Source: an uncultured delta proteobacterium (GTDB taxonomy: Bacteria > Desulfobacterota > BSN033 > UBA1163). From it: a stretch of DNA of 64,000 bases. How positions within the stretch are numbered: position 1 is the stretch's first letter; every line of letters starts with the position of its first letter. The notes beneath the pieces are model-generated. The model did not search any database, was not told the origin of the DNA, and worked only from the letters and a program-made list of their open reading frames with translations. Position numbers and translations under genes: made by a program. The stretch is taken from NCBI GenBank assembly GCA_963827685.1, contig CAWHBU010000004.1, forward strand, positions 736,001 to 800,000, in the 5' to 3' direction. Below are positions 27,748 through 60,034 of the stretch, piece after piece.

Positions 27748-28119
27748 TCACTTTTTTTCTGTTGGGTAACTGGCCTTAAGCCATTCCCTCCACCCACCTT
27801 TGAGAGCATAGACCTTCGTATATCCCATTCCCATCAGCTTTTGTGCCGCACGGGCACTGGTGCCTTCGTGGGGTCAGGCGCAGTAGAAGACGAGGGTCTT
27901 ATCCTTGAGATACTTATTCGCCCAGGAATCAATGGCTTCAGGATCTTCTCGAACAGCCCCTTTAATCTTCAAGTCGCTACCTGTCCAGTCCATACCGTGG
28001 CGGACATCTATGATGATCAAATTAGGGTTGCCGAGCATTGCCTTGAGCTCTTCCTTCGTCATTCTGGGGGCATCCGTAGACTTTGCCAATGTCGTGCATC
28101 CCCCAACCATAAATAACAT
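27748..28119 (-). pseudogene. Rhodanese-like seleno(lipo)protein, main part; 5' end separated by IS256
   Basis: IIDVR...IKGAV...LVFYCA-TGA(27874-76)-PHEGTSARAAQKLMGMGYTKVYALKGGWREW...: the rhodanese fold continues 41 codons past TGA; SECIS-like hairpin GTGCC-CGTGC-GGCAC. Confidence 0.85.
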
Positions 28120-32549: not shown

Positions 32550-33077
32550 TCAGTCGCCCTCCTTTCTTTCCAACTTACTTAGTTCTATATTCTCGAGGAA
32601 CGCATCTACATTGGACTCCAGAGCCGTAACGATCTTCTCATTCCCACTATTTAAAATTTTTATGACGTTGTCAATGAACTTTCTCACGGGCACATTTTCT
32701 GATTGCCGGTTCTCGTGGTGTGCAGCTGACCCTCCGTACGTGAGAGGCGGTTCCGAAACTTGAAGGTATTCGAGACCCGCCGGTGGCGGACGTAGCAGCT
32801 GCGTTAATTTCTGAAATAGATCGTCCGGTGATTCTTCCGACTGAAAAATTTGTTTGATCGCATTCCAACGTTCCCTGGACAGACCCCAGAGGATGGTGGC
32901 TGGGGAGACGCCGAATTTTTCCTCGATAGTATATAGAAGATCAAGTGAAGGTTCCTTTTTCCCTGTCTCGATCTCGGATATGTACGCGTCGGAATATCCG
33001 ATGACATCACCAAAATCTTTTTGAACCTTATAACCCTTTGCCAACCTTAATTCCTTAATTCTTTCGCCTGGTTTCAT
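32550..33077 (-). CDS. Prophage repressor (XRE HTH)
   Basis: GERIKELR...QKDFG...YISEIETGKKEPS; divergent from ner. Confidence 0.88.
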   Translation of the reverse strand: MKPGERIKELRLAKGYKVQKDFGDVIGYSDAYISEIETGKKEPSLDLLYTIEEKFGVSPATILWGLSRERWNAIKQIFQSEESPDDLFQKLTQLLRPPPAGLEYLQVSEPPLTYGGSAAHHENRQSENVPVRKFIDNVIKILNSGNEKIVTALESNVDAFLENIELSKLERKEGD

Positions 33078-33798: not shown

Positions 33799-34275
33799 TT
33801 GGTCAAAAGCAATAGCAATTTTATGAAGAGATTTGCCAGTCCCGACCAGTTAAATTTCTTCGATCTACTCAGAGACCTTCGTCCGAAAAATAGCGGATTC
33901 TCATCATTTAATATAGACCTACTCCTACGCGAGACCATCAGCCAGGCGATCAAGGAATCGCCGCTTTCACGGTTTCAAATTGCTGCTCACATGAGCGAGA
34001 TTCTGGGCCTCGAGGTCAGCAAGTCGATGATCGATTCCTGGACGGCCGAGAGCCGCGAAGGGATCAACCGCTTTCCAGCCTGCTATTTACCGGCCTTTTG
34101 TCAGACCGTGAATTCGCTCGAACCACTGAAAGTGCTGGCGGATCTCCTTGGATGCGTCGTCGTCGAGGGAGAGGAGGCACTTCTCATTGAGCTTTCGAAG
34201 GTTGGGGTCGAGAAGGAGAAACTCTTTAAGAGAGAGAAGGCCATTAAAACGATTCTTGGGGGAATGAGAAAATGA
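33799..34275 (+). CDS. Mu-like phage DNA-binding protein upstream of the transposase
   Basis: SRFQIAAHMSEILG.EVSKSMIDSWTAESRE...FPA.YLPAFC. Confidence 0.75.
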   Translation: MVKSNSNFMKRFASPDQLNFFDLLRDLRPKNSGFSSFNIDLLLRETISQAIKESPLSRFQIAAHMSEILGLEVSKSMIDSWTAESREGINRFPACYLPAFCQTVNSLEPLKVLADLLGCVVVEGEEALLIELSKVGVEKEKLFKREKAIKTILGGMRK

Positions 34276-36629
34276 GGCGACTCGTTGATACGGAGGAGGC
34301 GGCGAGGATGTTGGGGATCACATCCAGGGCGGTTCGGAAATGGTTCGCCGCCGGAAAGGTCGAGGGCAAATTTGAACCGGGCAAAAGGGCGGGCAGATCT
34401 GGAATGAAATTGTTCGTATGGATCGAGGACGACCAGAGGGCAGTCGGCAGTAGGCAGAAGGCAGATAAGAAAGAGAGAGATCATACCCGGGTGAATCGGG
34501 GGGAACCGGGACGAGAGATTGTCACGCCCCTGTTTAATGGCGTGCCAATCGATACGGAGACGCGGGGATCCGGAGACTCGGAGATAACTTTACATGGTTC
34601 TACGATGTTAACTAAAGACCAAAAAAACGCCAATTTTGTCAAGTTAACTGAAACCCTGCCGTCCGGGCATCAATTCCTGGTCTCACCCCACCAGGTCCCT
34701 CCTTCCCCGGACGGCGGGGTGCCTACACTCGAAACCGAGCTTCGGCACCCAGGGGCGCTTTCTCCGTCGGCAATAAATGCCGACGCTACAGAAAATGCCC
34801 TGGATTCCGGCCCCCGGATCGATGTCCGGGGCGAGCTCCGCCGGAATGACAAAGCGGATCGTATTGCCAACCTGCGGTTCGCCCTGATCCAAGCATTTAA
34901 CGAAGAGATCGCCAAAAACCACCGGCCAAAAGTAGAGACCATTCGCAATTTTCTATCATTATATAATAGCGGGGTTCTTTTGTCCGACATCCACAAAGAA
35001 CTCGGCGAGATCTCCCGCGCCACATTATATAACTGGCGCTCAGCGGCCGCGCCGCAGGATCTCACGCCCCAATATGGCGGGGCGGGGCAATCGAAGGTAA
35101 CCGAACACGAGAAAAATATCGTCCTCACACTGCTATTGCATCAAAACCGTCTGAAAGTCTCTTACGGCATCACACTCGCCAAAGAATACCTCACCAAAAA
35201 GAGAATAGACTCGCCTTCAAGCCCTTCCACGCTGCGAAGATTCATCGATCAATTCAAAAAAGAGCATTACGACATCTGGATCCTGCGGCGCGAGGGCGAG
35301 AAGGCGCTCAAAGATAAAGTCACTCCCTATGCTGAGCGCGACTGGCGCTTGCTCGAGGTGGGCGACGGCCTGGTCGCCGACGGCCATCGGCTGAATTTTC
35401 AAGTGATCAATCCCAACACAGGCAAGCCTTGCAGGGCGGCGCTGGTGCTTTTCTGGGACTGGAGAAGTTCTTATCCGCTCGGATGGGAGCTCATGCTCGA
35501 GGAATCGACCCAATGTGTCGCCTCAGCCCTCAGAAACGCCATCGTCGCCCTGGGTAAAATTCCGAAATGGGTCTATCTCGACAACGGCAAAGCATTCAAG
35601 GCAAAGGTCTTCACGCAGGACATCGATTTTGAGGATTCGGAACTCCCCGGCATGTTTGCCCGCCTCAACATCAATTACCATTTCGCTCAACCCTACAATG
35701 CCCAATCGAAACCCATCGAAAGAATTTTTGGGATCCTGAACGAACAACTCGAGCGTCTGGTCCCATCCTATACCGGCGCCTCTATTAATGATAAGCCCGC
35801 CTGGACGAAGCGAAACGAAAAATATGCCCGGTCCCTTCACAATCCCGTTATTCCCACAATCCCGGAGACGAATGGCCTGATTTTTGCCTGGCGCGATCGC
35901 TATGCAGAGAGATCCTCCAGGGGAAGGGACGGTCTCCGGCCTATCGATATATATAATGATGGGAAAGGCCCTGGCGTTGACCCGGCCGAATTGATCTATC
36001 TAATGATGGACCGCGAGATCAAACAGGTCCACCGAAACGGCGTCACCTGGCTTGGCTGGCACTGGTTTGATGAGGCCATGTACGGCCTCAAAGATAAAGT
36101 CGTCATCCGCTATTCTCTTTCCGATCTCTCACAGATATACGTCTTTCACAAAAATGAATTCCTCTGCGCCGCAAAACCCATCGAACTGGTGCATCCGATG
36201 GCCTCCGAAAGCGAGAACCCCAAAGACATGGAGGCCGTGAAGGACGTCATCCGCCTCCAGAAGAAGGTCAAAAACACTACCCGCAAACTCTGCGATCTCC
36301 TCGAGACGAAACAGGCGAGCCAGATCGATTGGAGCAGAACGAGAAACTCCGAGATCTCCGAGACGATAGAAAAGATCGAGGCGGAGAAGAAACCGAAAGT
36401 TGTGAGATTTTCGCCTTTTGCCGACGCTCCGGAGTCTGACCCGGAGATAGTCGAACATGATGACGCAGAGCAAGATCACCTGCCACAAAGACGACGGTTT
36501 AAATACGATTTTGAAAAATATGAATGGCTGATGGTTCAGAAATCCATATCCGAAGACGACCAAAAGTGGATCGACCAGTACCGAGCCACCTCTTCGGCAT
36601 TCAAGGATGTCATCGGAGGTAAACAATGA
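34272..36629 (+). CDS. MuA-like DDE transposase
   Basis: N-terminal HTH; ADGH, YLDNGKAF, SKPIERIF DDE triad; Mu C-terminal domain. Confidence 0.95.
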   Translation: MRRLVDTEEAARMLGITSRAVRKWFAAGKVEGKFEPGKRAGRSGMKLFVWIEDDQRAVGSRQKADKKERDHTRVNRGEPGREIVTPLFNGVPIDTETRGSGDSEITLHGSTMLTKDQKNANFVKLTETLPSGHQFLVSPHQVPPSPDGGVPTLETELRHPGALSPSAINADATENALDSGPRIDVRGELRRNDKADRIANLRFALIQAFNEEIAKNHRPKVETIRNFLSLYNSGVLLSDIHKELGEISRATLYNWRSAAAPQDLTPQYGGAGQSKVTEHEKNIVLTLLLHQNRLKVSYGITLAKEYLTKKRIDSPSSPSTLRRFIDQFKKEHYDIWILRREGEKALKDKVTPYAERDWRLLEVGDGLVADGHRLNFQVINPNTGKPCRAALVLFWDWRSSYPLGWELMLEESTQCVASALRNAIVALGKIPKWVYLDNGKAFKAKVFTQDIDFEDSELPGMFARLNINYHFAQPYNAQSKPIERIFGILNEQLERLVPSYTGASINDKPAWTKRNEKYARSLHNPVIPTIPETNGLIFAWRDRYAERSSRGRDGLRPIDIYNDGKGPGVDPAELIYLMMDREIKQVHRNGVTWLGWHWFDEAMYGLKDKVVIRYSLSDLSQIYVFHKNEFLCAAKPIELVHPMASESENPKDMEAVKDVIRLQKKVKNTTRKLCDLLETKQASQIDWSRTRNSEISETIEKIEAEKKPKVVRFSPFADAPESDPEIVEHDDAEQDHLPQRRRFKYDFEKYEWLMVQKSISEDDQKWIDQYRATSSAFKDVIGGKQ

Positions 36630-37300
36630 AGGATCATTTCGTCGAGACCAAGAGCTTCAAGAAGTTTCGGGAAGGAATCGATCATATCAACCAAAAACTA
36701 AAAGGCGTCGAACGGATGCTTTTGGTTGTGGGCGAACCCGGACTTGGAAAAACGGAGGCAGCTATCCATTACTGCGCGATGAATGGCGCGGTATTCATTC
36801 GGACACTTGAAATGATGACCGGCTCGTGGGTGCTCCGGACCATTGTGAAAGAACTTGGCACCGAGCCATATTACCGGTCCGACAAAAATCATGATCTTAT
36901 CCGGGAGTTCCTCACCAGCAATCCCCGGACGATCGTCTTTGATGAAGTGGATAGGTTTACTCGCAAACCCGAGATCCTGGAGACCCTCCGCGATGTTCAC
37001 GACGTCTGCCATTGCCCAATCGTCTTTATCGGGGAAGAGACAGCCGACAAAAAAATGATGCATAACCGCAGGCTGTACCGACGCTTTGTAGAAGTTGTTC
37101 GTTTTGAAAAGCTTGATATTGACGGCGTGAAGAACTTCTTAGTTGAGACGAGCGACATCAAATATCAGGGCGACGCTGTAGACATGATCACACGCGAAAG
37201 TAATGGGAAAATCAGCGGGATCATCACCATGATCCATCATGCCGAAAACTGGGCGAAACGAAACAACGAGAAATCCATATCCGCCAAGGATCTGAAATGA
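36626..37300 (+). CDS. MuB-like AAA+ ATPase
   Basis: Walker A GEPGLGKT, Walker B VFDEVD, ETLRDVHD. Confidence 0.93.
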   Translation: MKDHFVETKSFKKFREGIDHINQKLKGVERMLLVVGEPGLGKTEAAIHYCAMNGAVFIRTLEMMTGSWVLRTIVKELGTEPYYRSDKNHDLIREFLTSNPRTIVFDEVDRFTRKPEILETLRDVHDVCHCPIVFIGEETADKKMMHNRRLYRRFVEVVRFEKLDIDGVKNFLVETSDIKYQGDAVDMITRESNGKISGIITMIHHAENWAKRNNEKSISAKDLK

Positions 37301-44860: not shown

Positions 44861-44917
44861 AAAACCCGACTTGTGTTCGTCGGCAGTAAATGCCGACGCT
44901 ACAGGTCGGGTTTTTTT
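44861..44917 (+). terminator. Long intrinsic terminator upstream of the endolysin
   Basis: AAAACCCGACTTGT...ACAGGTCGGGTTTTTTT with inner CGTCGGCA/TGCCGACG hairpin. Confidence 0.7.
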
Positions 44918-44928
44918 ATGGGGTCGAA

Positions 44929-45438
44929 ATGATCATCACTCACTGGTCGCACATCATGATTCACCATTCGGCAAGTCCGGACAGTCGCACGTTCGGTTGG
45001 CAAGAGATTAGGCGATACCACATGTCGTGGCGCATTGATGGAACAAGCGTCAGCAAGGAAGAATACGATCGGAGACTCTTGGCGAAACAGGGAACGCATT
45101 TTGAGGCTCCGGACCGAGATATCGCCTATCACTTCGGGATTGAGTTGGTCAACGACCGTTATGAAATTTTCGTTGGCCGGGATCTGGACCAGGATGGGGC
45201 GCATTGTATCGGGATGAATCAGAAGGCCATCGGGATCTGTTTCATTGGAAATTTTGACGGGACCCGGGTCCCGGCAGATCAGTGGACAGTGGGCGTCTTT
45301 TTTGTGAGAAGCCTCTGCCGGATCCTATTGATTCCGATCACGTGCGTTATTCCGCATCGGGATTACGCCCAAAAGACCTGTCCGGGCAAATTATTCGATA
45401 TGGAACTTTTCAGAAGAGATCTTTTGAGGATCACATGA
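44929..45438 (+). CDS. Endolysin, N-acetylmuramoyl-L-alanine amidase (Amidase_2)
   Basis: IMIHHSA, DIAYHF, GAHC.GMN..AIGICFIGNFD, HRD...KTCPG. Confidence 0.92.
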   Translation: MIITHWSHIMIHHSASPDSRTFGWQEIRRYHMSWRIDGTSVSKEEYDRRLLAKQGTHFEAPDRDIAYHFGIELVNDRYEIFVGRDLDQDGAHCIGMNQKAIGICFIGNFDGTRVPADQWTVGVFFVRSLCRILLIPITCVIPHRDYAQKTCPGKLFDMELFRRDLLRIT

Positions 45439-47333: not shown

Positions 47334-47849
47334 ATGAGGCAGAGGCCAGAAAAAAAAGAATATTCCTTTGAAGTCGTCGAGACAGCCGAGAACCTCTACG
47401 TCTACAAAAATAAGACCTACGAGGAAATTTCGAAGATTCTCGATATTCCGGTAGTCACCCTCCAGCGATGGGGGGCCGACGAGAAGCCAGACAAGGGCGG
47501 AAAGGGCGGCTACGAGTGGCGTAAAAAGAAACTCGAATATATCAAGCAGCGTGTCGGAACAAGGAAAGAATTATACCTGATCAAGGATCACTTGATTAAG
47601 GAGGCTAAAGAGAACACCGACCCCCTGGCGGTATATAAATTGGCAACTCTTCAAAGAACGATCGATGCCGAGGAGAAGGGGGACATAGATGAAAGCATGC
47701 AAAAGATCGACCGGCCTCAAATATTTCTCGATTTTCTCAAGGATCTTGTCTCTTATCTTAAAGAACACGATGCGGAAGCACTGGTGGCATTGGAAAAGAA
47801 TTTTGATCCATTCATAGGGTTCGCAAAGAGCAAATACGCGAACCCTTGA
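47334..47849 (+). CDS. Terminase small subunit-like (Mu gp27 position)
   Basis: N-terminal HTH (AENLYV...EEIS...TLQRW); directly upstream of TerL. Confidence 0.75.
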   Translation: MRQRPEKKEYSFEVVETAENLYVYKNKTYEEISKILDIPVVTLQRWGADEKPDKGGKGGYEWRKKKLEYIKQRVGTRKELYLIKDHLIKEAKENTDPLAVYKLATLQRTIDAEEKGDIDESMQKIDRPQIFLDFLKDLVSYLKEHDAEALVALEKNFDPFIGFAKSKYANP

Positions 47850-47935: not shown

Positions 47936-49615
47936 GTGAAACGAGTTTTGAGTGAAAAGAAGTTCGATCTTGAGATTGAGGCGATCCGGTCGCTGATCCA
48001 ATCGGTTGCCAAACCTTTCCCCGTTGACAAGAAACTCCAGGAGGAAAGGATCGAGCGCGGCTCGCACGATCTTGAATTTTTCGGCCGCACCTACTTCCCG
48101 CATTACATCGAGGCCCCCTGCTCGGCATTTCACCGTTACGTTTGCGAACGATATACGGCGATGGTCCTTCGGGCGGTCGAGACCGGAGAAGGAGACAAGG
48201 AGGCCGATGCGGCTCCTCGAGGAAACGCCAAATCGACCTGGGCCGATCTCGTCTTCGCCCTCTGGTGCGCCGCCTTCGGATATCGCCGTTTTATCGTCAT
48301 CGTCAGCGATACCGCTTCGCAGGCCGAGGATTTCATCCAATTCATCAAGGCGGAGCTCGAGGTGAACGAGCGGCTCGCCCAGGACTTTCCGAAACTCTGC
48401 GGCCAGGGGCCTATCTGGCGGGCCGATACGATCATCACCGCAAACCGGGTCAAAATCCGAGGCGTGGGCGCTGGGCAAAAACTAAGAGGCATGCGCCACG
48501 GATCCACACGGCCGGATCTCGTGATCGGGGATGATTTGGAGAATGACGAGGCCGTTGAATCTCCGGATCAGAGGAAGAAAATGGAGAGGTGGTTTTTCAA
48601 GGCACTGATGAAGATCGGCCAGAAGGATACGGTCTTCCTGATCCTCGGGACCATCCTTCATTACGACAGCCTTCTCAGTGATCTCCTGAGACGACCCGGA
48701 TGGAAAGGTCGCAAGTTCAAAGCCGTCATAAAATATTCCAGCTCAAAACTATGGGAAAAATGGGAAGAGATCTTCGTCGATATTTCCATCGGAAAAGAAC
48801 AAGCCGAAGAAGCGGCCGATGCCTTTTTCGAGGCCAACAAAGCGGAAATGCTTGCTGACACCGAGGTCCTCTGGCCCGAGGTCGAGGATTACTATTATCT
48901 GATGAAAATGCGGATCTCAGACGGGCCTGCCTACTTTGAATCGGAGAAACAAAACGAGCCGATCAATCCGGAAGATGCAATCTTCCTGGGAGAATGGTTT
49001 GTCGACTGGGAAGAAGGAGACGTGGATCTCACCGGCATCGCGCACGCGGGCGCATGCGATCCGTCTCTCGGAAAACGGAACAAACGTGGGGATTCATCAG
49101 CAATACTCGGCGGGCGGATGAAGGACAACGTTCTGTATCTCGACGTTGCGGATATCGAGCGCCGGCAGCCAGACAAAATTATGACCGATATTCTGGCGCA
49201 TCACACCCGTGATCCCTTCGATAAATTCAGGATCGAGATCGTGCAATTTCAGGAATTCTTTGCGCGGCAATTTGAAAAGGTCGCGCATGATACCGGCCGG
49301 ACGATGAACATCGACAACTACATTCCCAACGCCGACAAAGATTTGAGGATCATCCGGCTCCAGCCCTGGATCAAGAATGGCTGGATCCGCTTCAAGCCCA
49401 ACATGAGGGAGCTCAAACGGCACCTGATCTATTACCGGCCAAAAAATAGGGGCGGCCCAGATGATGGCCCCGATGCATTGGAGATGCTCCTCGGACTTTG
49501 TGAGGCGGGTTTGATGCCTGCCGCGTCTGTTTCGAGTGAGACGGGAAAGGGCGATTATCACGCGGAGCGGAGGCGGGGCATCATGGAGAGGTTTGGATTT
49601 AGAAGGGCAGCATGA
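47936..49615 (+). CDS. Terminase large subunit
   Basis: YFPHY, APRGNAKST, RPDLVIGDDLEND, GTILH, DPSLG, DDGPDALE. Confidence 0.95.
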   Translation: MKRVLSEKKFDLEIEAIRSLIQSVAKPFPVDKKLQEERIERGSHDLEFFGRTYFPHYIEAPCSAFHRYVCERYTAMVLRAVETGEGDKEADAAPRGNAKSTWADLVFALWCAAFGYRRFIVIVSDTASQAEDFIQFIKAELEVNERLAQDFPKLCGQGPIWRADTIITANRVKIRGVGAGQKLRGMRHGSTRPDLVIGDDLENDEAVESPDQRKKMERWFFKALMKIGQKDTVFLILGTILHYDSLLSDLLRRPGWKGRKFKAVIKYSSSKLWEKWEEIFVDISIGKEQAEEAADAFFEANKAEMLADTEVLWPEVEDYYYLMKMRISDGPAYFESEKQNEPINPEDAIFLGEWFVDWEEGDVDLTGIAHAGACDPSLGKRNKRGDSSAILGGRMKDNVLYLDVADIERRQPDKIMTDILAHHTRDPFDKFRIEIVQFQEFFARQFEKVAHDTGRTMNIDNYIPNADKDLRIIRLQPWIKNGWIRFKPNMRELKRHLIYYRPKNRGGPDDGPDALEMLLGLCEAGLMPAASVSSETGKGDYHAERRRGIMERFGFRRAA

Positions 49616-49743
49616 GTTCGTTGGGTTTATTGCCTGCCTGCGCGAAGCCGCTTCGGCATAGGCAGGGGTTCATTGAGTTTATTGAGTTAGCTCAAGGAAC
49701 TCAAGCAACCCAAGCAACTCGATGAACCGTGACCGGAGTAACC

Positions 49744-51207
49744 ATGAGGATTAAAGACAAATTAATTGATGCGTTTTTTGGAAGTACCATTGAATCGAAG
49801 GTGAAGGAACGCATTAAGGCGGCGTCGATCCTCGATGCGCCGACGGTTGAGGACCTTAAGTGGAGGCGCCTGACCACCAACGCCAACCGCGACCTTCTGC
49901 CCATAACGCAGGACCGGATGATCGAGATCGCCTACTGGCTTCACGAGACGAATCCACTCGCGGGCTGGCTGATCGATATCACCACGGCTTTCATCATGGC
50001 CGAGGAGTTGCCGTATGAATCAAAGGATGAGGAAATCAAGGCCGTGCTCGATGGTTTCTGGAACGATCCAGTCAACCGGATGGACCTTTACTTTCCGAAG
50101 CACGTCTCCGAACTCCACATCTTCGGCGAGCTCTGCATGCCCGCCTTTGTTGCAAAGCAAACGGGCCGGGTGAGGCTCGGCTACGTAGATCCAGCGCAGA
50201 TCGATATCGTCGCGACCGACCCCGAGAATGTGAAGATGCAGATCGGCGTCATCACCAAGCCCTGGACCGGCCTGGTCGGGGGCTTTCAGATCAATCAGGA
50301 TCCCAAAAAATATCGGACGGTCCTGCCGGAGGAAGCCGAATACGTTCTTTCGCCCACAGCGAAGCAGCTCCGCAATCAATTCACGGATGGCGATTGTTTT
50401 TATTTCTCGATCAATAACGTGACGAATTCTCCGAGAGGCCGATCGTCTTTGCTTTCCGTCGCCGATTGGCTCGACGCCTATGAGCAATATCTTTTCGATT
50501 TCGCGGATAAGTGGCCGCAGTTCAACTCCTTCGTGTGGGACATCTTGGTGCAAGGCGGCAACGAGGACGACATCAAAAAACAGGTCGCGAACTTCAGCAA
50601 AAAATCCGGGTCATCCTTTGGCCATAATGAGAAAGTGACACTGTCGCCTTTGGCGCCCGAGATGAAAGCAATGGATGCGGAGACTGGAGCCAGACTTTTT
50701 CGCAATCATATCCTCGGCCCGTTCGGATATCCGGAGCACTGGTATGGCGGGGGAGGCGACGTGAATCGGGCGACGGCCTCCGAGATGGATATGCCGGCAA
50801 TCAAGATGCTCTCATACAAGCAAAATTACGTAAAATTTGCGCTGATGGAAATCCTCGGATACCAGGTCAGGCAGGCGAGGCAGGCTGGTTATCTCCGGGC
50901 GCCGGGGGATGCGACTTTCTCAGTGACCACGCCGGTCATGCAGGCAAAGGATGTTTCCAAATTCGGAGCGATGGTCCAGCAGGTGGCGGCAGCCCTGTTG
51001 ACGGCCGAGAGCCAAGAGTGGATCGATAAGGAGACTGCCCGCAAACTCTTCGCCGCAATGGTCGGATTCCTCGGAGTGGATATCGATCTCGATGAGGTGA
51101 AGAAGGCCCTGGCGGAAGGCGGGGGAGACCAAAGTGCGATCCAGGATTACCTGAAGAAAAAACCGGTCCTGCCTCAACCCGCGCAAGGGGTGAGGAGAGT
51201 GAAGTAA
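49744..51207 (+). CDS. Portal protein
   Basis: About 490 aa directly after TerL; GE..., RGRS.L, G.P....G...NRATA. Confidence 0.85.
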   Translation: MRIKDKLIDAFFGSTIESKVKERIKAASILDAPTVEDLKWRRLTTNANRDLLPITQDRMIEIAYWLHETNPLAGWLIDITTAFIMAEELPYESKDEEIKAVLDGFWNDPVNRMDLYFPKHVSELHIFGELCMPAFVAKQTGRVRLGYVDPAQIDIVATDPENVKMQIGVITKPWTGLVGGFQINQDPKKYRTVLPEEAEYVLSPTAKQLRNQFTDGDCFYFSINNVTNSPRGRSSLLSVADWLDAYEQYLFDFADKWPQFNSFVWDILVQGGNEDDIKKQVANFSKKSGSSFGHNEKVTLSPLAPEMKAMDAETGARLFRNHILGPFGYPEHWYGGGGDVNRATASEMDMPAIKMLSYKQNYVKFALMEILGYQVRQARQAGYLRAPGDATFSVTTPVMQAKDVSKFGAMVQQVAAALLTAESQEWIDKETARKLFAAMVGFLGVDIDLDEVKKALAEGGGDQSAIQDYLKKKPVLPQPAQGVRRVK

Positions 51208-51269
51208 AACCCAAAAAAGCATGGGGCATGGGGCATAGAGCAGAGAGCAAAAAAGGACAAGGAGGCGCG

Positions 51270-51488
51270 ATGAAAAAAATCTATAGACCGGAAGAATTGG
51301 CGAAAAAAATAGGAGTCACGGAGAGGGTACTCCTCGATTGGAGAGACCTCGGGATGCCCTGGGTAAAAATCGGCAAAGCGATCTACATTTTTGAGGATAG
51401 TTTCATAAGGTGGGTCAAGACCCAGGAAAGGGTGGGTGTTGCTCAGGATGCCTCAGGACAAGACTTATCGGAGGAACCTATACAATGA
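51270..51488 (+). CDS. Excisionase/MerR-like HTH protein
   Basis: PEELAKKIGV....L.DWRD.GMP.VKIG; RBS AAGGAGG. Confidence 0.75.
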   Translation: MKKIYRPEELAKKIGVTERVLLDWRDLGMPWVKIGKAIYIFEDSFIRWVKTQERVGVAQDASGQDLSEEPIQ

Positions 51489-51680
51489 GATGCCCCCTCT
51501 TTTTTTCGTTACGTTTCGCATACGGATTGATGCTGTTTCACTACGTTTGGACACCTTTTGGTGACGCCGGATCAGGGGTCACTGGTCAAAATTGGGTCTT
51601 TCGGCTCAATCCGCAATCCCTGCCTGCGCGAAGCGCTCCGGCGAAGGCAGGCGCAATCCGAATTCCGCATTGGAGGCAGG

Positions 51681-52499
51681 ATGCCGTCTCTTAAGGAAAT
51701 CGAGTTTGCACGAAAGATGAAGGCGTTGCTCCAGGAGGCGGATAACCTTCAGGATGACGCGGTAAAGAGGGTGCTCGCCATCCTCAGCCAGGCGCGAAGG
51801 GAAGTGGCAGCCGACGTGGCATCGACCGACTGGGAGGCTTACCGCCTCAAGGGACTAAAGGAAGCAATCGAGAGGGCGATGACCGATTTTGCTGACAAAT
51901 ACAGTATTGATCTCAGGAGCGCCCAGGCCGACCTTTTCGACCTCGGCATTGCCAGGGCGAATATCCCTCTCGGCGTTGCCACTGCCATGTCGATGGTCCC
52001 ATCCATCAATATCAAGGCGCTGGAGATCGCCCAGAACTACTCGTCGGATCTTATCAGCAACCTTACTGAAGACGCGATCAAGAAAATCAATCAAGAACTG
52101 ACGATGGGGATCCTTGGCGTGAAGACGCCCTTTGAGGTGATGACGGCCATCGGGAAAAATCTTGAGGATCCTTCGGTTTTTAAATCGATCGCAAGCCGGG
52201 CAGAGGTGATCACCAGGACAGAGACCGGAAGAATTTTCGAGATGGCCACTCAATCGAGGCTTGAGGACGCACAGAGGGTTGTGCCGGACATGAAAAAACA
52301 ATGGATGTCGTCGCCGATGAGACCGACGGCCAGGCCCGAGCATCACACGCCAGAGGTTGATGGACAGATCCGCGATGTGGATGAGACCTTTGACGTGGCC
52401 GGAGAGCAGTTGATGTTCCCGGGCGATCCGGCGGGATCCCCGTGGAACACAATCAACTGCGGCTGACGGAGTGTGCCGTATATGTCCAGTTGGGCATGA
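51681..52499 (+). CDS. Minor head protein MuF/gp30; stops at 52466 unless TGA is read as Sec (then ends 52499)
   Basis: RA..I.RTE, KKQW...R..H...DGQ, FPGDP...INCG-TGA-RSVPY; SECIS-like hairpin at 52482-52497. Confidence 0.88.
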
Positions 52500-52655
52500 A
52501 GGGTTATTGGGTTCATTGGGTTCGTTGAGTCATTGAGTTTTCGGGTTCATTGAGTTCTTTGGGTTATCGGGTCCATTGGCCTGCCGCAGGCCTGCGGCAG
52601 GCAAGCAACTCAAAGAACACAAGTAACCGGAAGGAGCGACGGAGAGGCGCAAAAA

Positions 52656-53222
52656 ATGAAGAAGAGATTAATTGAGGTTATAGCGTGCGGACTCGTAGTT
52701 GCGGCACTTGCCGTCGCGACGTACTACCGGAACGAGATCTGGGGAAGCGAGATGAGCCTGTGGCGCGACGCCGCGAAAAAATCTCCTTATAAGGATCGGC
52801 CTGCGATCAATCTTGCGACGGCGTTGGCCCAGCAGGGGAGATTTGAAGAGGCCAAACATGGGATTCAGAGATACCTTGAGATCAATCCGCAATCCATCGA
52901 GGCCCAGAACAATCTCGGAGCGATTCTGAGCCTCCAGGGAAAATACGACGAGGCCCTTTACCATATTTTTGAGGCCCTGCGAATCGATCCAAAAAACCCA
53001 ATCGCCCACAATAACGCGGGCGCGGTTCTATGCAAGCAAGGCCAGTACCAGGAGGCCCTCATCCATTTTAAGGAGGCGCTCAAAAGCAAGTCCGATTTTG
53101 AGGACGCGCGGAAGAACTACGAGACCATCTCGGCGGCGATAAAGAAGAAGGTTGAGGCTAAAGTTGAGGTTAAGGCTGAGCCAAAGGCTAACGCCAAGGC
53201 TAAGGTTGAGTCTAAAGAATAA
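52656..53222 (+). CDS. Membrane-anchored TPR protein resembling the C-terminal part of TMTC-like proteins
   Basis: TM helix, T..RN..W.....LW.D..KKSP...R...NL, then TPR repeats; tail encoded by AGGTTG/AGGCTA repeats. Confidence 0.8.
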   Translation: MKKRLIEVIACGLVVAALAVATYYRNEIWGSEMSLWRDAAKKSPYKDRPAINLATALAQQGRFEEAKHGIQRYLEINPQSIEAQNNLGAILSLQGKYDEALYHIFEALRIDPKNPIAHNNAGAVLCKQGQYQEALIHFKEALKSKSDFEDARKNYETISAAIKKKVEAKVEVKAEPKANAKAKVESKE

Positions 53223-53573: not shown

Positions 53574-56207
53574 ATGGATCCCAAAGAGGCTCAAAAGGCC
53601 AGAGCGAGCAAATGGAATATCGCCATTAAGGATGGCGGCCATGTGACGAAACCTGGGCAGTGGTCGAGCGTTCCGGATGAGGAATTCCTCGATCCGGTCA
53701 ATTATCGATATCCGTGTCCTAACGCAGATCAAACCAGGGCGGCAGCCGCCTACTGGGGCCAGGCCGACAACCAGGCGCAGTACTCGAGCGAAGAGAAAGC
53801 CATCATTAATAGAAGGCTCGATGAGATGGAGAAAAAATTTAATATTGGAGATCGTCAATCGGGTGCCATGAGCTTTTCCGAGACTCGCCGCGCTCTCTGC
53901 CAGGCGCTTTCGGCAAAATTTCCGAACATGCCCGGCGATATCGTTGATATCTACAACGATTATTGCATCTTCTCGGACGGCGAGAACAACCTTTTCGAGA
54001 TCCCATATGGTGTCGATGCAAATGGGACCATTACGTTCGGCGACAAGGTAAAGGTGAGAAAAGAAGTAACCTATTTGAAAGTGTCATCTGCCTCTCATCT
54101 CTCAAAGGCCATCGGTGCCACGACGGATCCGAATTACGGATACCAATGGGACGTTCAGATCGTCGAGGCGGGCCCAGACCGTCAAGGCACGGCGATCTAT
54201 CCCTACGAGGTCCTGAAAGCGGCGATTCCTCTGTACGAAGGGGCCAAAGTTTTTGCCCTCTCTCAGGGTCAACATGATAATCCCGATAATCCATTCGGAA
54301 AATCAGTCCGCGATCTCGTGGGGTGGATCTCGGGTGTGAGACCTAACGACAAAGGGTTGGAAGGAAAACTCAATATTTTAAAAACCGCATCCTGGCTTCG
54401 GGACATGATAGTCGATTCCTGGAATCGTGGGAAAAAAGACCTGGTCGGCCTTTCCCATGACATCCTGGCCAGGGTGGCATCGGGTCCGGCGCCGCGAAAG
54501 GCAGAAAAGATCGTCCGGGTCGATTCGGTTGATGTTGTCTATGATCCCATCGCAGGTGGGAAATTCATAAGAATGGCTGCGGCCGCGGCTAAGGCGGCGA
54601 GTCAAAAGGAGGCTACCATGTTCAAGCAGATGTTGGCCGCACTTAAAAAGCAGCGGCCGGATTTGAAGGATCAGATCGAAGCGTTGGAGGCAAAGGGCGA
54701 CGCCGTCACCGAGGACGAGATCTCCACTCTCCTGGCACAGGTGACGGGAGCAAGCACAAGCAGAAGCGAGTTTGAAAAATATCTCGAAAAACTCACCGCA
54801 TCCGTGAGCGAGATAACCAAGCAGCAGGCCCAGAAAATGATTGACGAGGCCACGAAGAAATTCGAGGATGCCCAGAAACTCCTGGCCTGCGCGCAGTTGC
54901 TGACGGATGAGCTCGAAGCGTCGAAGCTGCCGGATGTGATGAAAGCGCGGATCAGGAAACAGTTCTCCGCCAGGGTCTTCGAAGTCGAAGACCTCAAGGC
55001 CGCGATTAAGGATGAAAAAGAAATTGCGGATAAGTTGACCGGAAGCGGGACAGTGAGCGGAGTCGGCGGCCTTCGCATGGAGGTCGGAGAAGGCGAACCC
55101 GAAAAGCTCCAGGCCGCTCTCGATAAACTCATGGGAGCGGAGGTGGACGAGAAATTTAAAACCGTGCCGGCGTTCCATTCTCTCAGGGCAGCGTACACGC
55201 GGCTGACCGGAGACCCGGAGGTCCGCGGGATTCCCTCGCGCGAAGCGATCAAGCTCGGCGAGGCCTTCATGAACATGATGAGGCTGCCGGCTGCCTACAG
55301 CACAAGTTCTTTCTCGTTCGTGCTGGGCAATTCGATGTATCGGCGTCTGATCAAAGAATACAATGCGGTGAACTACCGCGAGGACGCGTTGATCTCCTTC
55401 TACCGTAACGCCGAGAATTTCAAAACCCTTGAGATCATCCAGGTCGGCTATTTCGGAGACGTGCCCGATGTAAACCCGGAAACGGCCGATTATGTCGAAA
55501 TTACCATGCCGACGGATATCGAGGCGACCTACGCCATCAACCAGAAAGGATGGATTTTGACGGTTACGCGGCGGGTGGTGCTTAACGATGACCTCAAGAC
55601 CGTGACCCAGCTCATTTCCAAGATGGGCCGTGCGCACAGAAGGACCCATGCCAAGCGCGCATGGAACAAAATTATTTCGAACGCCACCTACAAGGGCGAC
55701 AGCAAGGCCCTGTTCCATACGGATCACGGAAACCTCGGGGCTGTGGCGCTTACCCTTGACGCGACCGGCGTGGCCACTGTGACGAACCGGTTAAAGGCCA
55801 TGTACGCCCAGGCCGAGCAAGATTCTGGGGAGAAACTGGCACTCATTCCAAGATGTCTCTGGGCCCCGAGAGATTGTCTTGAAATCGCCCAGGGACTCAA
55901 TGCGCCCTGGCCGGGGGCAGCTACGCCCAACCCCCACGCCTACAGGTTCGGTCAGAACAACGAGAACATCATCTGCAACCCGCTCTTCACGGACGTCAAC
56001 GATTGGGGCCTGATTGCCGATCCTGGAGATGCGGAACTTCTCGAGGCGGCCTACCTCAACGGGCAACGGGAACCTGAATTTTTCGTCGCCGATAACCCGG
56101 TGATGGGCCAGATGTTCGTGGCGGATAAGATCCAATACAAGAGCCGCCATGAGTACGAATTTGAGATCGCGGACTATCGCGGGTTCGATAAATCGGTATG
56201 CGCATAA
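53574..56207 (+). CDS. Fused prohead protease/scaffold/major capsid protein with a DUF6582-like N-terminal domain
   Basis: YRYP.....TRAA..YW; protease-like H...VG.I, GLS.D, SVDVVYDP.AGG; coiled-coil scaffold; Mu gpT-like capsid (ALFH.DHGNL, YLNGQREPE, DYRG). Confidence 0.88.
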   Translation: MDPKEAQKARASKWNIAIKDGGHVTKPGQWSSVPDEEFLDPVNYRYPCPNADQTRAAAAYWGQADNQAQYSSEEKAIINRRLDEMEKKFNIGDRQSGAMSFSETRRALCQALSAKFPNMPGDIVDIYNDYCIFSDGENNLFEIPYGVDANGTITFGDKVKVRKEVTYLKVSSASHLSKAIGATTDPNYGYQWDVQIVEAGPDRQGTAIYPYEVLKAAIPLYEGAKVFALSQGQHDNPDNPFGKSVRDLVGWISGVRPNDKGLEGKLNILKTASWLRDMIVDSWNRGKKDLVGLSHDILARVASGPAPRKAEKIVRVDSVDVVYDPIAGGKFIRMAAAAAKAASQKEATMFKQMLAALKKQRPDLKDQIEALEAKGDAVTEDEISTLLAQVTGASTSRSEFEKYLEKLTASVSEITKQQAQKMIDEATKKFEDAQKLLACAQLLTDELEASKLPDVMKARIRKQFSARVFEVEDLKAAIKDEKEIADKLTGSGTVSGVGGLRMEVGEGEPEKLQAALDKLMGAEVDEKFKTVPAFHSLRAAYTRLTGDPEVRGIPSREAIKLGEAFMNMMRLPAAYSTSSFSFVLGNSMYRRLIKEYNAVNYREDALISFYRNAENFKTLEIIQVGYFGDVPDVNPETADYVEITMPTDIEATYAINQKGWILTVTRRVVLNDDLKTVTQLISKMGRAHRRTHAKRAWNKIISNATYKGDSKALFHTDHGNLGAVALTLDATGVATVTNRLKAMYAQAEQDSGEKLALIPRCLWAPRDCLEIAQGLNAPWPGAATPNPHAYRFGQNNENIICNPLFTDVNDWGLIADPGDAELLEAAYLNGQREPEFFVADNPVMGQMFVADKIQYKSRHEYEFEIADYRGFDKSVCA

Positions 56208-59101: not shown

Positions 59102-60034
59102 ATGCCATTAAGATTATTTGCGACACAACTCGCAGCAAAGGTTGAGACCACGGAAGGGACGAAGGAGACGCTGGCGGCTGCCGATGCCGTCCTGGTTTCA
59201 AACATCAAGTTCAGCCCCGATATTGAAATGGCCGCGCGGGATTGTTTGAGGGGCACACTGTCGCGCGATCCGAGTATATCGGGGAAACAAAAGGCCACGA
59301 TCTCATTCGATGTCGAGATGAAAGGCTCTGGTACTGCGGGCACCGCGCCCGATTATGGGAAACTGCTCAAAGGTTGCGGCTATTCGGAGACAATCGTGGC
59401 ATCGACGTCCGTGACATATAAACCTGCCACGAACAGTCTCTCCAACTCGTTCACCCTTGCCATCTATATGGACGGCGTGATCGTGCGGATCTGGGGCGCC
59501 CGGGGAAACGTGAAGGGATCGATGAATTCGGGAAAGCCGGGGATTCTCTCATTTGAGTTCCAAGGAGCAGTCTTCGAAGTGGTCGATGGAGCTCTCCTTA
59601 CGGGAACCTCATATCCCACGACCATTCCTCCGGCCTTTCTAAATGCGTCGCTTCTGCTCGATGCTTATGCGGCGATCTGCAGCAAGGTTGATTTCGACAC
59701 GGCCAACGTCCTGGGTCTCAGAGAGAGCATCAATTCGCCATCGGGTTTTCTCTCATGCCTCATCACCGGCCGAAACCCGAAGGGGTCACTCGATCCGGAG
59801 ATTCCGCTGGTTGCAAGCTATGATTTCTTTGGAAAGTGGAAGACCCCTGCGACACTCGGATCTCTTTCTCTCGCAGCATCAGGATCCGCGGGAAATATCG
59901 TGACCGTAAGTTTCCCAAAGGTAAGATACGCCAAGATCGCATCGGAGGATCGAAACGGGATCCGGTCACTCGGCCTTGATTTCGAGGCGTGCTTAAGCAC
60001 CGGCGATGACGAGATCTCGATCGCACTAACATAG
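59102..60034 (+). CDS. Major tail tube protein (siphovirus type)
   Basis: LAAK.ET..G, FDVE.KGSGTAGTAP..G.LL..CG, GARG, GDDE; no sheath gene upstream. Confidence 0.85.
   Translation: MPLRLFATQLAAKVETTEGTKETLAAADAVLVSNIKFSPDIEMAARDCLRGTLSRDPSISGKQKATISFDVEMKGSGTAGTAPDYGKLLKGCGYSETIVASTSVTYKPATNSLSNSFTLAIYMDGVIVRIWGARGNVKGSMNSGKPGILSFEFQGAVFEVVDGALLTGTSYPTTIPPAFLNASLLLDAYAAICSKVDFDTANVLGLRESINSPSGFLSCLITGRNPKGSLDPEIPLVASYDFFGKWKTPATLGSLSLAASGSAGNIVTVSFPKVRYAKIASEDRNGIRSLGLDFEACLSTGDDEISIALT

Follow-up and report, generated by a model that had tools for sequence, protein, structure and literature searches.

An in-frame UGA in the MuF-type head gene of a Mu-like prophage is very probably read as selenocysteine within a phage Sec/Cys protein family

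Introduction

In almost every case, selenocysteine (Sec) stands in for a Cys that is catalytic, redox-active or metal-binding, and a partner Cys is often close by. The bacterial selenocysteine insertion sequence (SECIS), as modelled in bSECISearch, is a stem-loop a short way past the UGA whose small apical loop has a G near its beginning. Among viruses, the poxvirus glutathione peroxidases are the only selenoproteins discussed in the relevant part of a review of viral recoding, and the fowlpox SECIS is described as lying in the coding sequence (PMC8310308). For phages, a 2018 report presents a predicted tRNA-SeC gene in Basilisk-like Bacillus phages and, in the passage concerned, calls it the first in phages (PMC6145125). 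MuF is described, in the passages devoted to it, as a structural domain of the phage head of unknown function, its SPP1 representative gp7 being bound to the portal in one or two copies for each capsid (PMC5512222, PMC5576092). Here we analyse a MuF-like head morphogenesis gene that contains an internal UGA. It lies in a prophage within a 64,000-nucleotide stretch (hereafter the window) of the genome assembly of an uncultured delta proteobacterium (GCA_963827685.1, contig CAWHBU010000004.1, positions 736,001 to 800,000), and its UGA aligns with a Cys codon of related phage genes.

Results

A MuF-type head gene with an internal UGA

The MuF frame, an open reading frame (ORF) of 51681-52466 up to its first TGA, ends in ...FPGDPAGSPWNTINCG, so that NTINCG directly precedes the TGA at 52464-52466. 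The frame then continues as RSVPYMSSWA to a second TGA at 52497-52499. A sequence-only reading of the window had described this in-frame TGA, the continuation and the second TGA, and all three are seen when the window sequence is read. It had also described MuF C termini as C-x-C followed by x-x-[VI]-P, which matches the homologue alignments presented below. The host genome holds a single copy of this gene, namely that of the window.

Several lines of evidence place the protein in the MuF family. The window protein matches the head morphogenesis family phrog_2468 (E 1.7e-26) over residues 15-268, that is, beyond the TGA, and most of its database homologues carry a precomputed PF04233 label. 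In BFVD, 66 proteins annotated as MuF-like minor capsid or head morphogenesis proteins match its predicted fold at E<=1e-3. The AlphaFold model of the full protein has a predicted local distance difference test score (pLDDT) of 71, and that of the domain alone has a pLDDT of 84 and a predicted template modelling score of 0.78. Both models place residues 262-267 in a confident core beta strand (block pLDDT 88-97); a stop at 261 would thus remove an invariant Cys together with a core strand. A fold search of the PDB gave no matches at E<=1e-3 for either the full or the domain-only model, and a PDB sequence profile search returned nothing at E below 0.4.

The MuF domain comprises 5,502 clusters at 50% identity. 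In an alignment of 48 homologues, conservation reaches at least 90% at His221 and at an acidic residue. The idea that MuF is an ADP-ribosyltransferase-like or RNase domain found no support in the literature read and was set aside. In the relevant passage of Iyer et al., the PBECR RNase domain is a separate, C-terminal part of Mu gp30 (PMC5512222), and the window protein lacks a part corresponding to it.

UGA and Cys alternate at one column

A search of a 5.8-billion-protein collection yielded 59 relatives, of which 48 were aligned; the 11 omitted hits (P0050-52 and P0054-61) are fused or partial. Fifteen of the 48, which are 45-90% identical to the query, stop exactly at NTINC[GS]. The other 33 have Cys at the next position, followed by x-[ST]-[VIL]-P-[YWF]-x-x-x-W. 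Truncation at NTINC[GS] is the pattern that gene callers leave at a Sec codon.

To see the codon itself, we turned to the DNA of 211 loci from three collections: GTDB species representatives, IMG/VR viral contigs (the best 80 of 537 confirmed loci) and metagenome contigs (the best 80 of 456 confirmed loci). TGA occupies the column in 18 of 80 viral and 16 of 80 metagenome contigs, with TGC or TGT in 62 of each and two metagenome contigs cut before the column; the 51 GTDB loci comprise 50 with TGC or TGT, none with TGA and one cut contig. Overall, besides the window, 34 of the 211 loci have TGA and 174 have TGC or TGT, three contigs ending earlier. Because some metagenome loci duplicate viral contigs, we also counted distinct 60-nt TGA segments, of which there are 26 including the window. 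Visual inspection of the loci that the motif pattern missed showed them to be Cys forms or cut contigs. Across the 193 pattern-scored loci (35 TGA, 158 Cys), the 37,867 codons that precede the column contain no stop, so the in-frame stops of this family all fall at one column. TGA and Cys alternate among both close and distant homologues, a check that the sequence-only reading had named.

The column is also highly constrained. Among 66 Cys-form sequences at 23-59% identity, the second Cys is one of only five invariant positions, and the first Cys is likewise invariant. In one Cys form that is 71% identical to the window protein (P0006), Arg replaces the first Cys (NTINRGCRSVPYMAGWA), so the first Cys is not strictly invariant among close relatives.

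In a FastTree phylogeny of 157 distinct rows (27 Sec; six short rows and 30 duplicates omitted), all Sec rows lie within one 102-row clade, where they are interleaved with Cys rows. The Sec state changes at least 15 times on this tree, with at least five changes forced by well-supported branches. The nearest relative of the window for which there is DNA is itself a Sec form (L141), reading NCG-TGA-RSAPYMASWA-TGA. Among representatives at 50% identity, one of 149 new ones ends right before the second Cys; truncated members are seldom chosen as representatives, so this set gives no estimate of frequency. A search of 60 host relatives (14 of the same genus, 22 of the same family and 24 more distant) returned no copy of the MuF gene, so this comparison does not inform on vertical conservation.

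Coding continues beyond the UGA

Beyond the TGA, 25 of the 26 distinct Sec forms have 10-33 open codons and the remaining one has 255; the median extension is 22.5 codons in Sec forms versus 20 in Cys forms. The 255-codon frame (L138, from about 4772) may have arisen by loss of the stop codon or by fusion to the gene that follows.

Codons +1 to +5 after the TGA lie 5' of the hairpin described below. With identical segments omitted, the ratio of nonsynonymous to synonymous change (pN/pS) in these codons is 0.36 among 16 main-clade and window forms and 0.34 among 10 forms of a distant subclade, compared with 0.27 and 0.25 in the 12 codons before the TGA in the same two groups. These five codons are almost saturated with synonymous change (pS about 0.7), and a conserved Ser at +2 is encoded by AGY codons in 12 cases and by TCN codons in two. 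These values indicate that the sequence past the TGA is under protein-level selection similar to that acting upstream.

A conserved SECIS-like hairpin follows the UGA

In the window, AUGUCC-AGUU-GGGCAU (52482-52497), 17 nt past the UGA, forms a stem-loop that RNAfold extends to 7 bp plus outer pairs, with an energy of -12.7 kcal/mol. With the U of UGA as +1, its loop reads A25 G26 U27 U28; the loop G and U lie 23 and 24 nt past the A of UGA, exactly where the sequence-only reading had put them. A hairpin is predicted in 35 of 35 TGA loci, with its loop at +24 to +28; folding of positions +10 to +44 gives energies from -6.9 to -17.2 kcal/mol. The hairpins of the 26 distinct Sec forms agree with the stem-loop features expected of bacterial SECIS elements.

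The main-clade hairpin is CAUCCC-AG[GU]U-GGGAUG, with A25-G26 in 16 main-clade forms, and the distant subclade has CUCCC-GGAC-UGGGAG and variants with small register shifts. The window stem has AUG/CAU where the main clade has CAU/AUG, so that three pairs are kept through two-sided changes; the same swap recodes H-P...D-E of the main clade to M-S...A-stop in the window. A covariation test on the 26-sequence alignment, in one fixed 7-bp register, found 78% of cells paired, a share that none of 500 shuffles reached (68.8% in shuffles), with double changes at three pairs. The covariation score was 0.301 against 0.143 in shuffles (again 0 of 500 as high) and stood above every slid control.

Sec and Cys forms also differ in the strength and coding of the hairpin. 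Mean folding energy is -11.0 in Sec rows (n=27) versus -6.9 in Cys rows (n=130; Mann-Whitney 4.8e-8), and the 24 closest Cys rows, with a mean of -7.9, are weaker than the Sec rows. As the hairpin partly comes free with the peptide, codons were compared only between forms with the same H-P-x-W peptide. Among these, CAU-CCC is used in 13 of 13 Sec forms versus 8 of 21 Cys forms (Fisher 2.4e-4), and AGG or AGU serves as loop codon in 13 of 13 versus 5 of 21 (p 1e-5); like the Mann-Whitney comparison, the Fisher tests ignore kinship. The Cys forms L062, L120 and L124, which have the full hairpin, adjoin Sec forms on the tree, a pattern that fits recent replacement of Sec by Cys leaving a putative fossil SECIS. 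The covariation and the synonymous codon bias indicate that the hairpin is under selection at the RNA level.

The host has Sec machinery and SECIS elements of the same geometry

The host genome is a metagenome-assembled bin of 5.2 Mb in 14 contigs, 94.5% complete and with 8% contamination. It encodes a tRNA-SeC (selC, anticodon tca), SelA (539.6 bits, its gene beside selC), SelB (wing domain, 73.5 bits) and SelD (384.1 bits). The selD gene (C6:489003-489929, L222) has one in-frame TGA (...VKKAG-U-ASKVG...) followed by a hairpin, which makes the selenophosphate synthetase itself a predicted selenoprotein. Four of nine rhodanese-domain hits in the host also have an in-frame TGA, one in the window and the others at C1:142869-143117, C1:380195-380482 and C6:238268-238546; the host appears rich in Sec-rhodanese genes. 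The C6 rhodanese hit has two TGAs two codons apart (Y-U-A-U-P).

We folded the sequences 3' of five host UGAs, numbered in the same way. The window rhodanese forms GUGCC-CGUGC-GGCAC with G26 and U27 in its loop, the rhodanese genes on contigs C1 and C6 have the loops AGGGC and GGUCA, both at +25 to +29, and selD has the loop GGA at +24 to +26; the second rhodanese on contig C1 folds differently. G26 is present in all four of the five host hairpins whose loop falls within +24 to +29. The phage loop thus has the geometry of the host's own SECIS elements, and the equal distance of the loop GU in the phage and window rhodanese genes, which had already been remarked on from the sequence, reflects G26 and U27 in both.

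Weighing the alternatives

Given these results, it is very probable that codon 262 is a UGA read as Sec by the host machinery and that the window copy belongs to a phage Sec/Cys family. The sequence-only reading had placed Sec at the second Cys and looked to three further observations: conservation of the downstream peptide, found in the pN/pS values and in the extensions of relatives; conservation of the hairpin, found in the hairpins of the TGA loci, their covariation and their synonymous codon bias; and selA, selB, selC and selD in the host, all of which are present. Its proposal is strengthened by the recurrence of the TGA, the conserved peptide and hairpin and the host sel genes, from which we infer that the inserted residue is Sec.

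One alternative is that the UGA is read through at low frequency by a near-cognate tRNA (Trp, Cys or Arg), with the hairpin as stimulator and two isoforms as the outcome. The evidence for translation past the UGA and the conserved hairpin fit this equally well. Against it, the codon always replaces an invariant Cys, the signature of a Sec/Cys pair, the position and loop G of the hairpin match those of host SECIS elements, and the sole genome to which a Sec form can be assigned both encodes and uses the full Sec machinery. TGA is also the only stop found at the column, although it is the only stop one step from TGC or TGT as well. We consider near-cognate read-through improbable.

The UGA could instead be a true stop that ends a MuF protein of about 261 residues, followed by a regulatory or terminator hairpin and leftover coding sequence. 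Gene callers do end the protein there (15 of 48 homologues), and the hairpin, which some Cys forms share, could serve another purpose. A true stop is nonetheless very improbable: codons +1 to +5 lie outside the hairpin and have pN/pS values of 0.34-0.36 with switches between Ser codon families, the frame is open for as long as in Cys forms in lineages that are 40-50% identical, the lost segment would be a confident core strand with the invariant Cys, and the window hairpin has no U-tract.

The window copy, a single-copy gene in a contaminated metagenome-assembled bin, might carry a nonsense mutation of its own, be a prophage gene in decay or contain an error of sequencing or assembly. We rejected this barely conceivable reading as the same TGA recurs in 34 other loci, the neighbouring phage genes are intact, and one study provides two runs whose contigs show no difference from the window over 52245-52634. 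A divergent contig of run X1, with 17 differences over 131 nt, retains the TGA, and its two listed changes past the TGA (52469 G>A and 52472 T>C) are synonymous in the read-through frame. The question of a read error, raised by the sequence-only reading, is thereby answered from the contigs of two runs and one variant, all of which carry the TGA, at the level of contigs and not of raw reads; 51674-51858 is covered by contigs of neither run.

A changed genetic code that reads TGA as sense (Trp or Gly), as in the stop-codon-recoded phages that are known, was likewise rejected as next to impossible, because tblastn alignments of the window's terminase large subunit, portal and capsid proteins to the TGA loci have four stops in 29,649 aligned residues (three of them, whose codons were not looked at, in portal alignments that extend to residue 492, where the query ends), TGA terminates the MuF gene itself in 9 of the 26 distinct Sec forms, and the upstream MuF codons counted above contain no TGA.

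Several observations weigh against reading UGA262 as Sec, besides the disregard of kinship in the tests above. The match to Pfam PF04233 (25.9 bits, residues 158-263) is under the curated cut-off of 29.6 bits, and with no solved relative of the fold, the chemistry of a C-x-U site is guesswork. Taken alone, the window hairpin has z = -1.86, with 8 of 200 dinucleotide shuffles folding as well, and an Rfam search at E<=10 over 52380-52620 gave only chance-level miRNA and leader matches, none over the hairpin. Conservation of the peptide H-P-x-W-[DE] accounts for part of the hairpin, and several Cys forms (L062, L120-L124, L082, L150 and L153) fold equally well. The support from sequencing runs consists of assembled contigs of one study, possibly of the source sample. 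TGA is absent from all 50 readable copies in GTDB representatives, and with the negative result in host relatives, the association of the Sec form with a host rests on one genome.

A proposed mechanism

If UGA262 is read as Sec, its decoding would yield a full-length, 272-residue minor head protein of the MuF type, with host SelA, SelD, SelB and Sec-tRNA(Sec) supplying the residue. A SECIS hairpin formed by codons 267-273 of the same ORF would direct the recoding: with the ribosome at UGA262, SelB and Sec-tRNA(Sec) would bind the hairpin and Sec would be inserted, after which the ribosome would melt the hairpin, read ten more codons and stop at the TGA in its 3' arm. Ribosomes that lose to release factor 2 would release a 261-residue product without the last core strand, which would probably be inactive. 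Functional MuF would then depend on the host's selenium supply and on compatibility between SelB and the SECIS. Inefficient recoding could be affordable because MuF is a low-copy protein, as reported for SPP1 gp7 (PMC5576092).

The usual roles of Sec lead us to read C260-G-U262 as an active centre. That it is chemically active, and not a purely structural Cys, is what we infer by analogy, and is the weakest step of the proposal. Our first choice for its role, a selenenylsulfide or a nucleophile, has about an even chance; a metal site formed with the nearly invariant His221 and the acidic residue is a less likely option. We also entertain, as a tentative and rather doubtful extension, that Sec in the C-x-C centre of the portal-associated MuF protein, in a clade of temperate Mu-like phages of selenium-using anaerobes, gates the formation of infectious particles by host selenium and by the match between SECIS and SelB. 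The sequence-only reading had likewise suggested that particle assembly may be tied to selenium or redox state. Sec would then act as both a physiological checkpoint and a determinant of host range, in a MuF protein with a redox or metal catalytic site.

The prophage and its neighbouring elements

The MuF gene sits in a Mu-like prophage (Table 1), marked as transposable by its MuA-like and MuB-like genes (34272..37300). The order portal-MuF-capsid is kept in related loci, as judged by tblastn of TGA loci, and no tRNA was found in the prophage region of the window. The 877-aa ORF combines DUF6582, a middle part resembling head maturation proteases and scaffolds, and Phage_capsid_4, and this fusion adjoins MuF in many related loci. 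The tetratricopeptide repeat (TPR) gene between MuF and the capsid fusion is in an odd spot for a gene that looks non-structural; it may be a moron or an assembly chaperone.

Repeats flank the MuF gene on both sides. A 34-nt palindromic element resembling repetitive extragenic palindromes (REP; 51619-51652, core CCTGCC...GGCAGG) lies in the intergenic region between the small helix-turn-helix (HTH) gene and MuF. A blastn-short search found 64 further matches over nine host contigs, mostly of 34 nt at 94% identity, and in the sequencing runs the segment has about 6x the depth of its flanks, with matching contigs that have unrelated flanks. This host repeat within the prophage ties the prophage to this genome. 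Directly 3' of the MuF stop is an array of 17-18-nt tandem units (52507-52565; 3.4 copies, 76% matches), followed at 52578-52602 by a perfect GC-rich palindrome or 11-nt repeat (GGCCTGCCGCA x2.3), which may be a terminator or a REP-like copy. Repetitive sequence 3' of MuF is also present in related loci, for example L064.

Table 1 Features of the MuF gene, its prophage and a host gene in the window (positions count from the first letter of the window)
Feature	Position	Strand	Details
MuF-like head morphogenesis gene including internal UGA	51681..52499	+	272 codons and final TGA stop
Shine-Dalgarno-like GGAGG	51672..51676	+	4 nt 5' of MuF gene ATG (51681)
C-G-U triad	52458..52466	+	Cys260 (TGC), Gly261, UGA262 (proposed Sec codon, 52464-52466)
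10-codon extension RSVPYMSSWA	52467..52496	+	262-267 = predicted core beta strand
True stop TGA	52497..52499	+	within 3' arm of hairpin
SECIS-like stem-loop	52475..52504	+	core stem 52481-52487 with 52492-52498; RNAfold
Hairpin loop AGUU	52488-52491	+	G 52489, U 52490
Hairpin outer pairs	52475-52477 with 52502-52504	+	
Host rhodanese-domain gene	27775..28059	-	one in-frame TGA; PF00581, 58.9 bits
Repressor-like gene	32550-33077	-	
MuA-like transposase	34272-36629	+	phrog_310, E 1.7e-90
MuB-like transposition protein	36626-37300	+	phrog_296, E 6.7e-36
Endolysin	44890-45438		
DUF1804 protein	47334-47849		
Terminase large subunit	47936..49615	+	phrog_38, E 1.2e-101
Portal protein	49729..51207	+	phrog_10963, E 1e-42
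Small HTH gene	51228-51488		
TPR protein	52656-53222		188 aa; TPR_1, E 7e-21
Protease/scaffold/major capsid fusion	53574..56207	+	877 aa; PF25209, E 1.2e-28; phrog_29592, phrog_4523
Tail gene	59102-60034		

Discussion

Known selenoproteins belong to cells or to a small number of eukaryotic viruses with captured host peroxidases; a phage-native virion family is undescribed in the literature that we searched. Full-text searches, with subscription journals outside their scope, found no natural bacteriophage selenoprotein. The words phage, virus, viral, capsid and morphogenesis have 0 occurrences in the main texts of the 2026 prokaryotic selenoproteome review, BSepDB and deep-Sep (PMC13188914, PMC13326102, PMC12013277); this statement of novelty covers main texts, and supplementary family lists may bear on it. 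In PMC5029168, 'phage' matched only through 'Treponema phagedenis', and the portion of PMC9312934 consulted offers only a general passage on bSECISearch. The MuF passages of PMC5512222 and PMC5576092 make no mention of cysteines or selenium.

The MuF domain is very common in phages, occurring in more than half of siphoviruses, and its function is unknown. Pairing of Sec with Cys classically marks a Cys as chemically active, so the alternation described here would offer a first functional handle on the MuF C-x-C. It would also imply dependence of a phage on a translation system that is optional in its host, with consequences for host range, a link between selenium and phage production, and SECIS mimicry. 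In protein databases, roughly one fifth to one third of the nearer members of the family appear in truncated form.

Three described systems bear a partial resemblance to this locus. As in fowlpox and molluscum contagiosum virus, whose glutathione peroxidases contain a viral UGA that is decoded as Sec by the host, the phage UGA would be decoded by a host system. Unlike the poxvirus peroxidases, which are captured host enzymes that use the eukaryotic factors SBP2 and eEFSec, the phage has a bacterial-type putative SECIS in a native structural gene. Basilisk-like phages have a tRNA gene and no described selenoprotein gene, whereas this prophage would rely on host selC. The MerB-like 'CU' family resembles the present one in that its database proteins are cut just before U, next to a Cys (bioRxiv 10.1101/2022.07.06.499078); it is unrelated and found in housekeeping contexts, and its authors note, in the part of that report concerned, the absence of phage neighbours.

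Among MuF proteins, the window protein resembles the PF04233 members Mu gp30 (F) and SPP1 gp7 in domain, fold, adjacency to the portal and a C-terminal C-x-C. It differs in the proposed Sec at the second Cys and in having no C-terminal effector or toxin domain of the kind that many MuF proteins carry.

Another parallel is with bacterial genes that have a SECIS within the ORF, of which E. coli fdhF is the type and the host's selD and rhodanese genes are local examples. In common with these, the phage gene has a UGA aligned with Cys, a small downstream stem-loop and an apical-loop G, often with a U, about 23-24 nt past the UGA, as in the host genes, and its decoding would depend on SelA, SelB, SelC and SelD. 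In contrast to these, it is phage-borne and encodes a virion or head-assembly protein and not a cellular oxidoreductase, and its predicted SECIS lies in the very last codons, overlapping the true stop in the window. The proposed mechanism is thus the ordinary bacterial one, and what is new is its bearer, a phage virion-protein gene that forms a whole Sec/Cys family.

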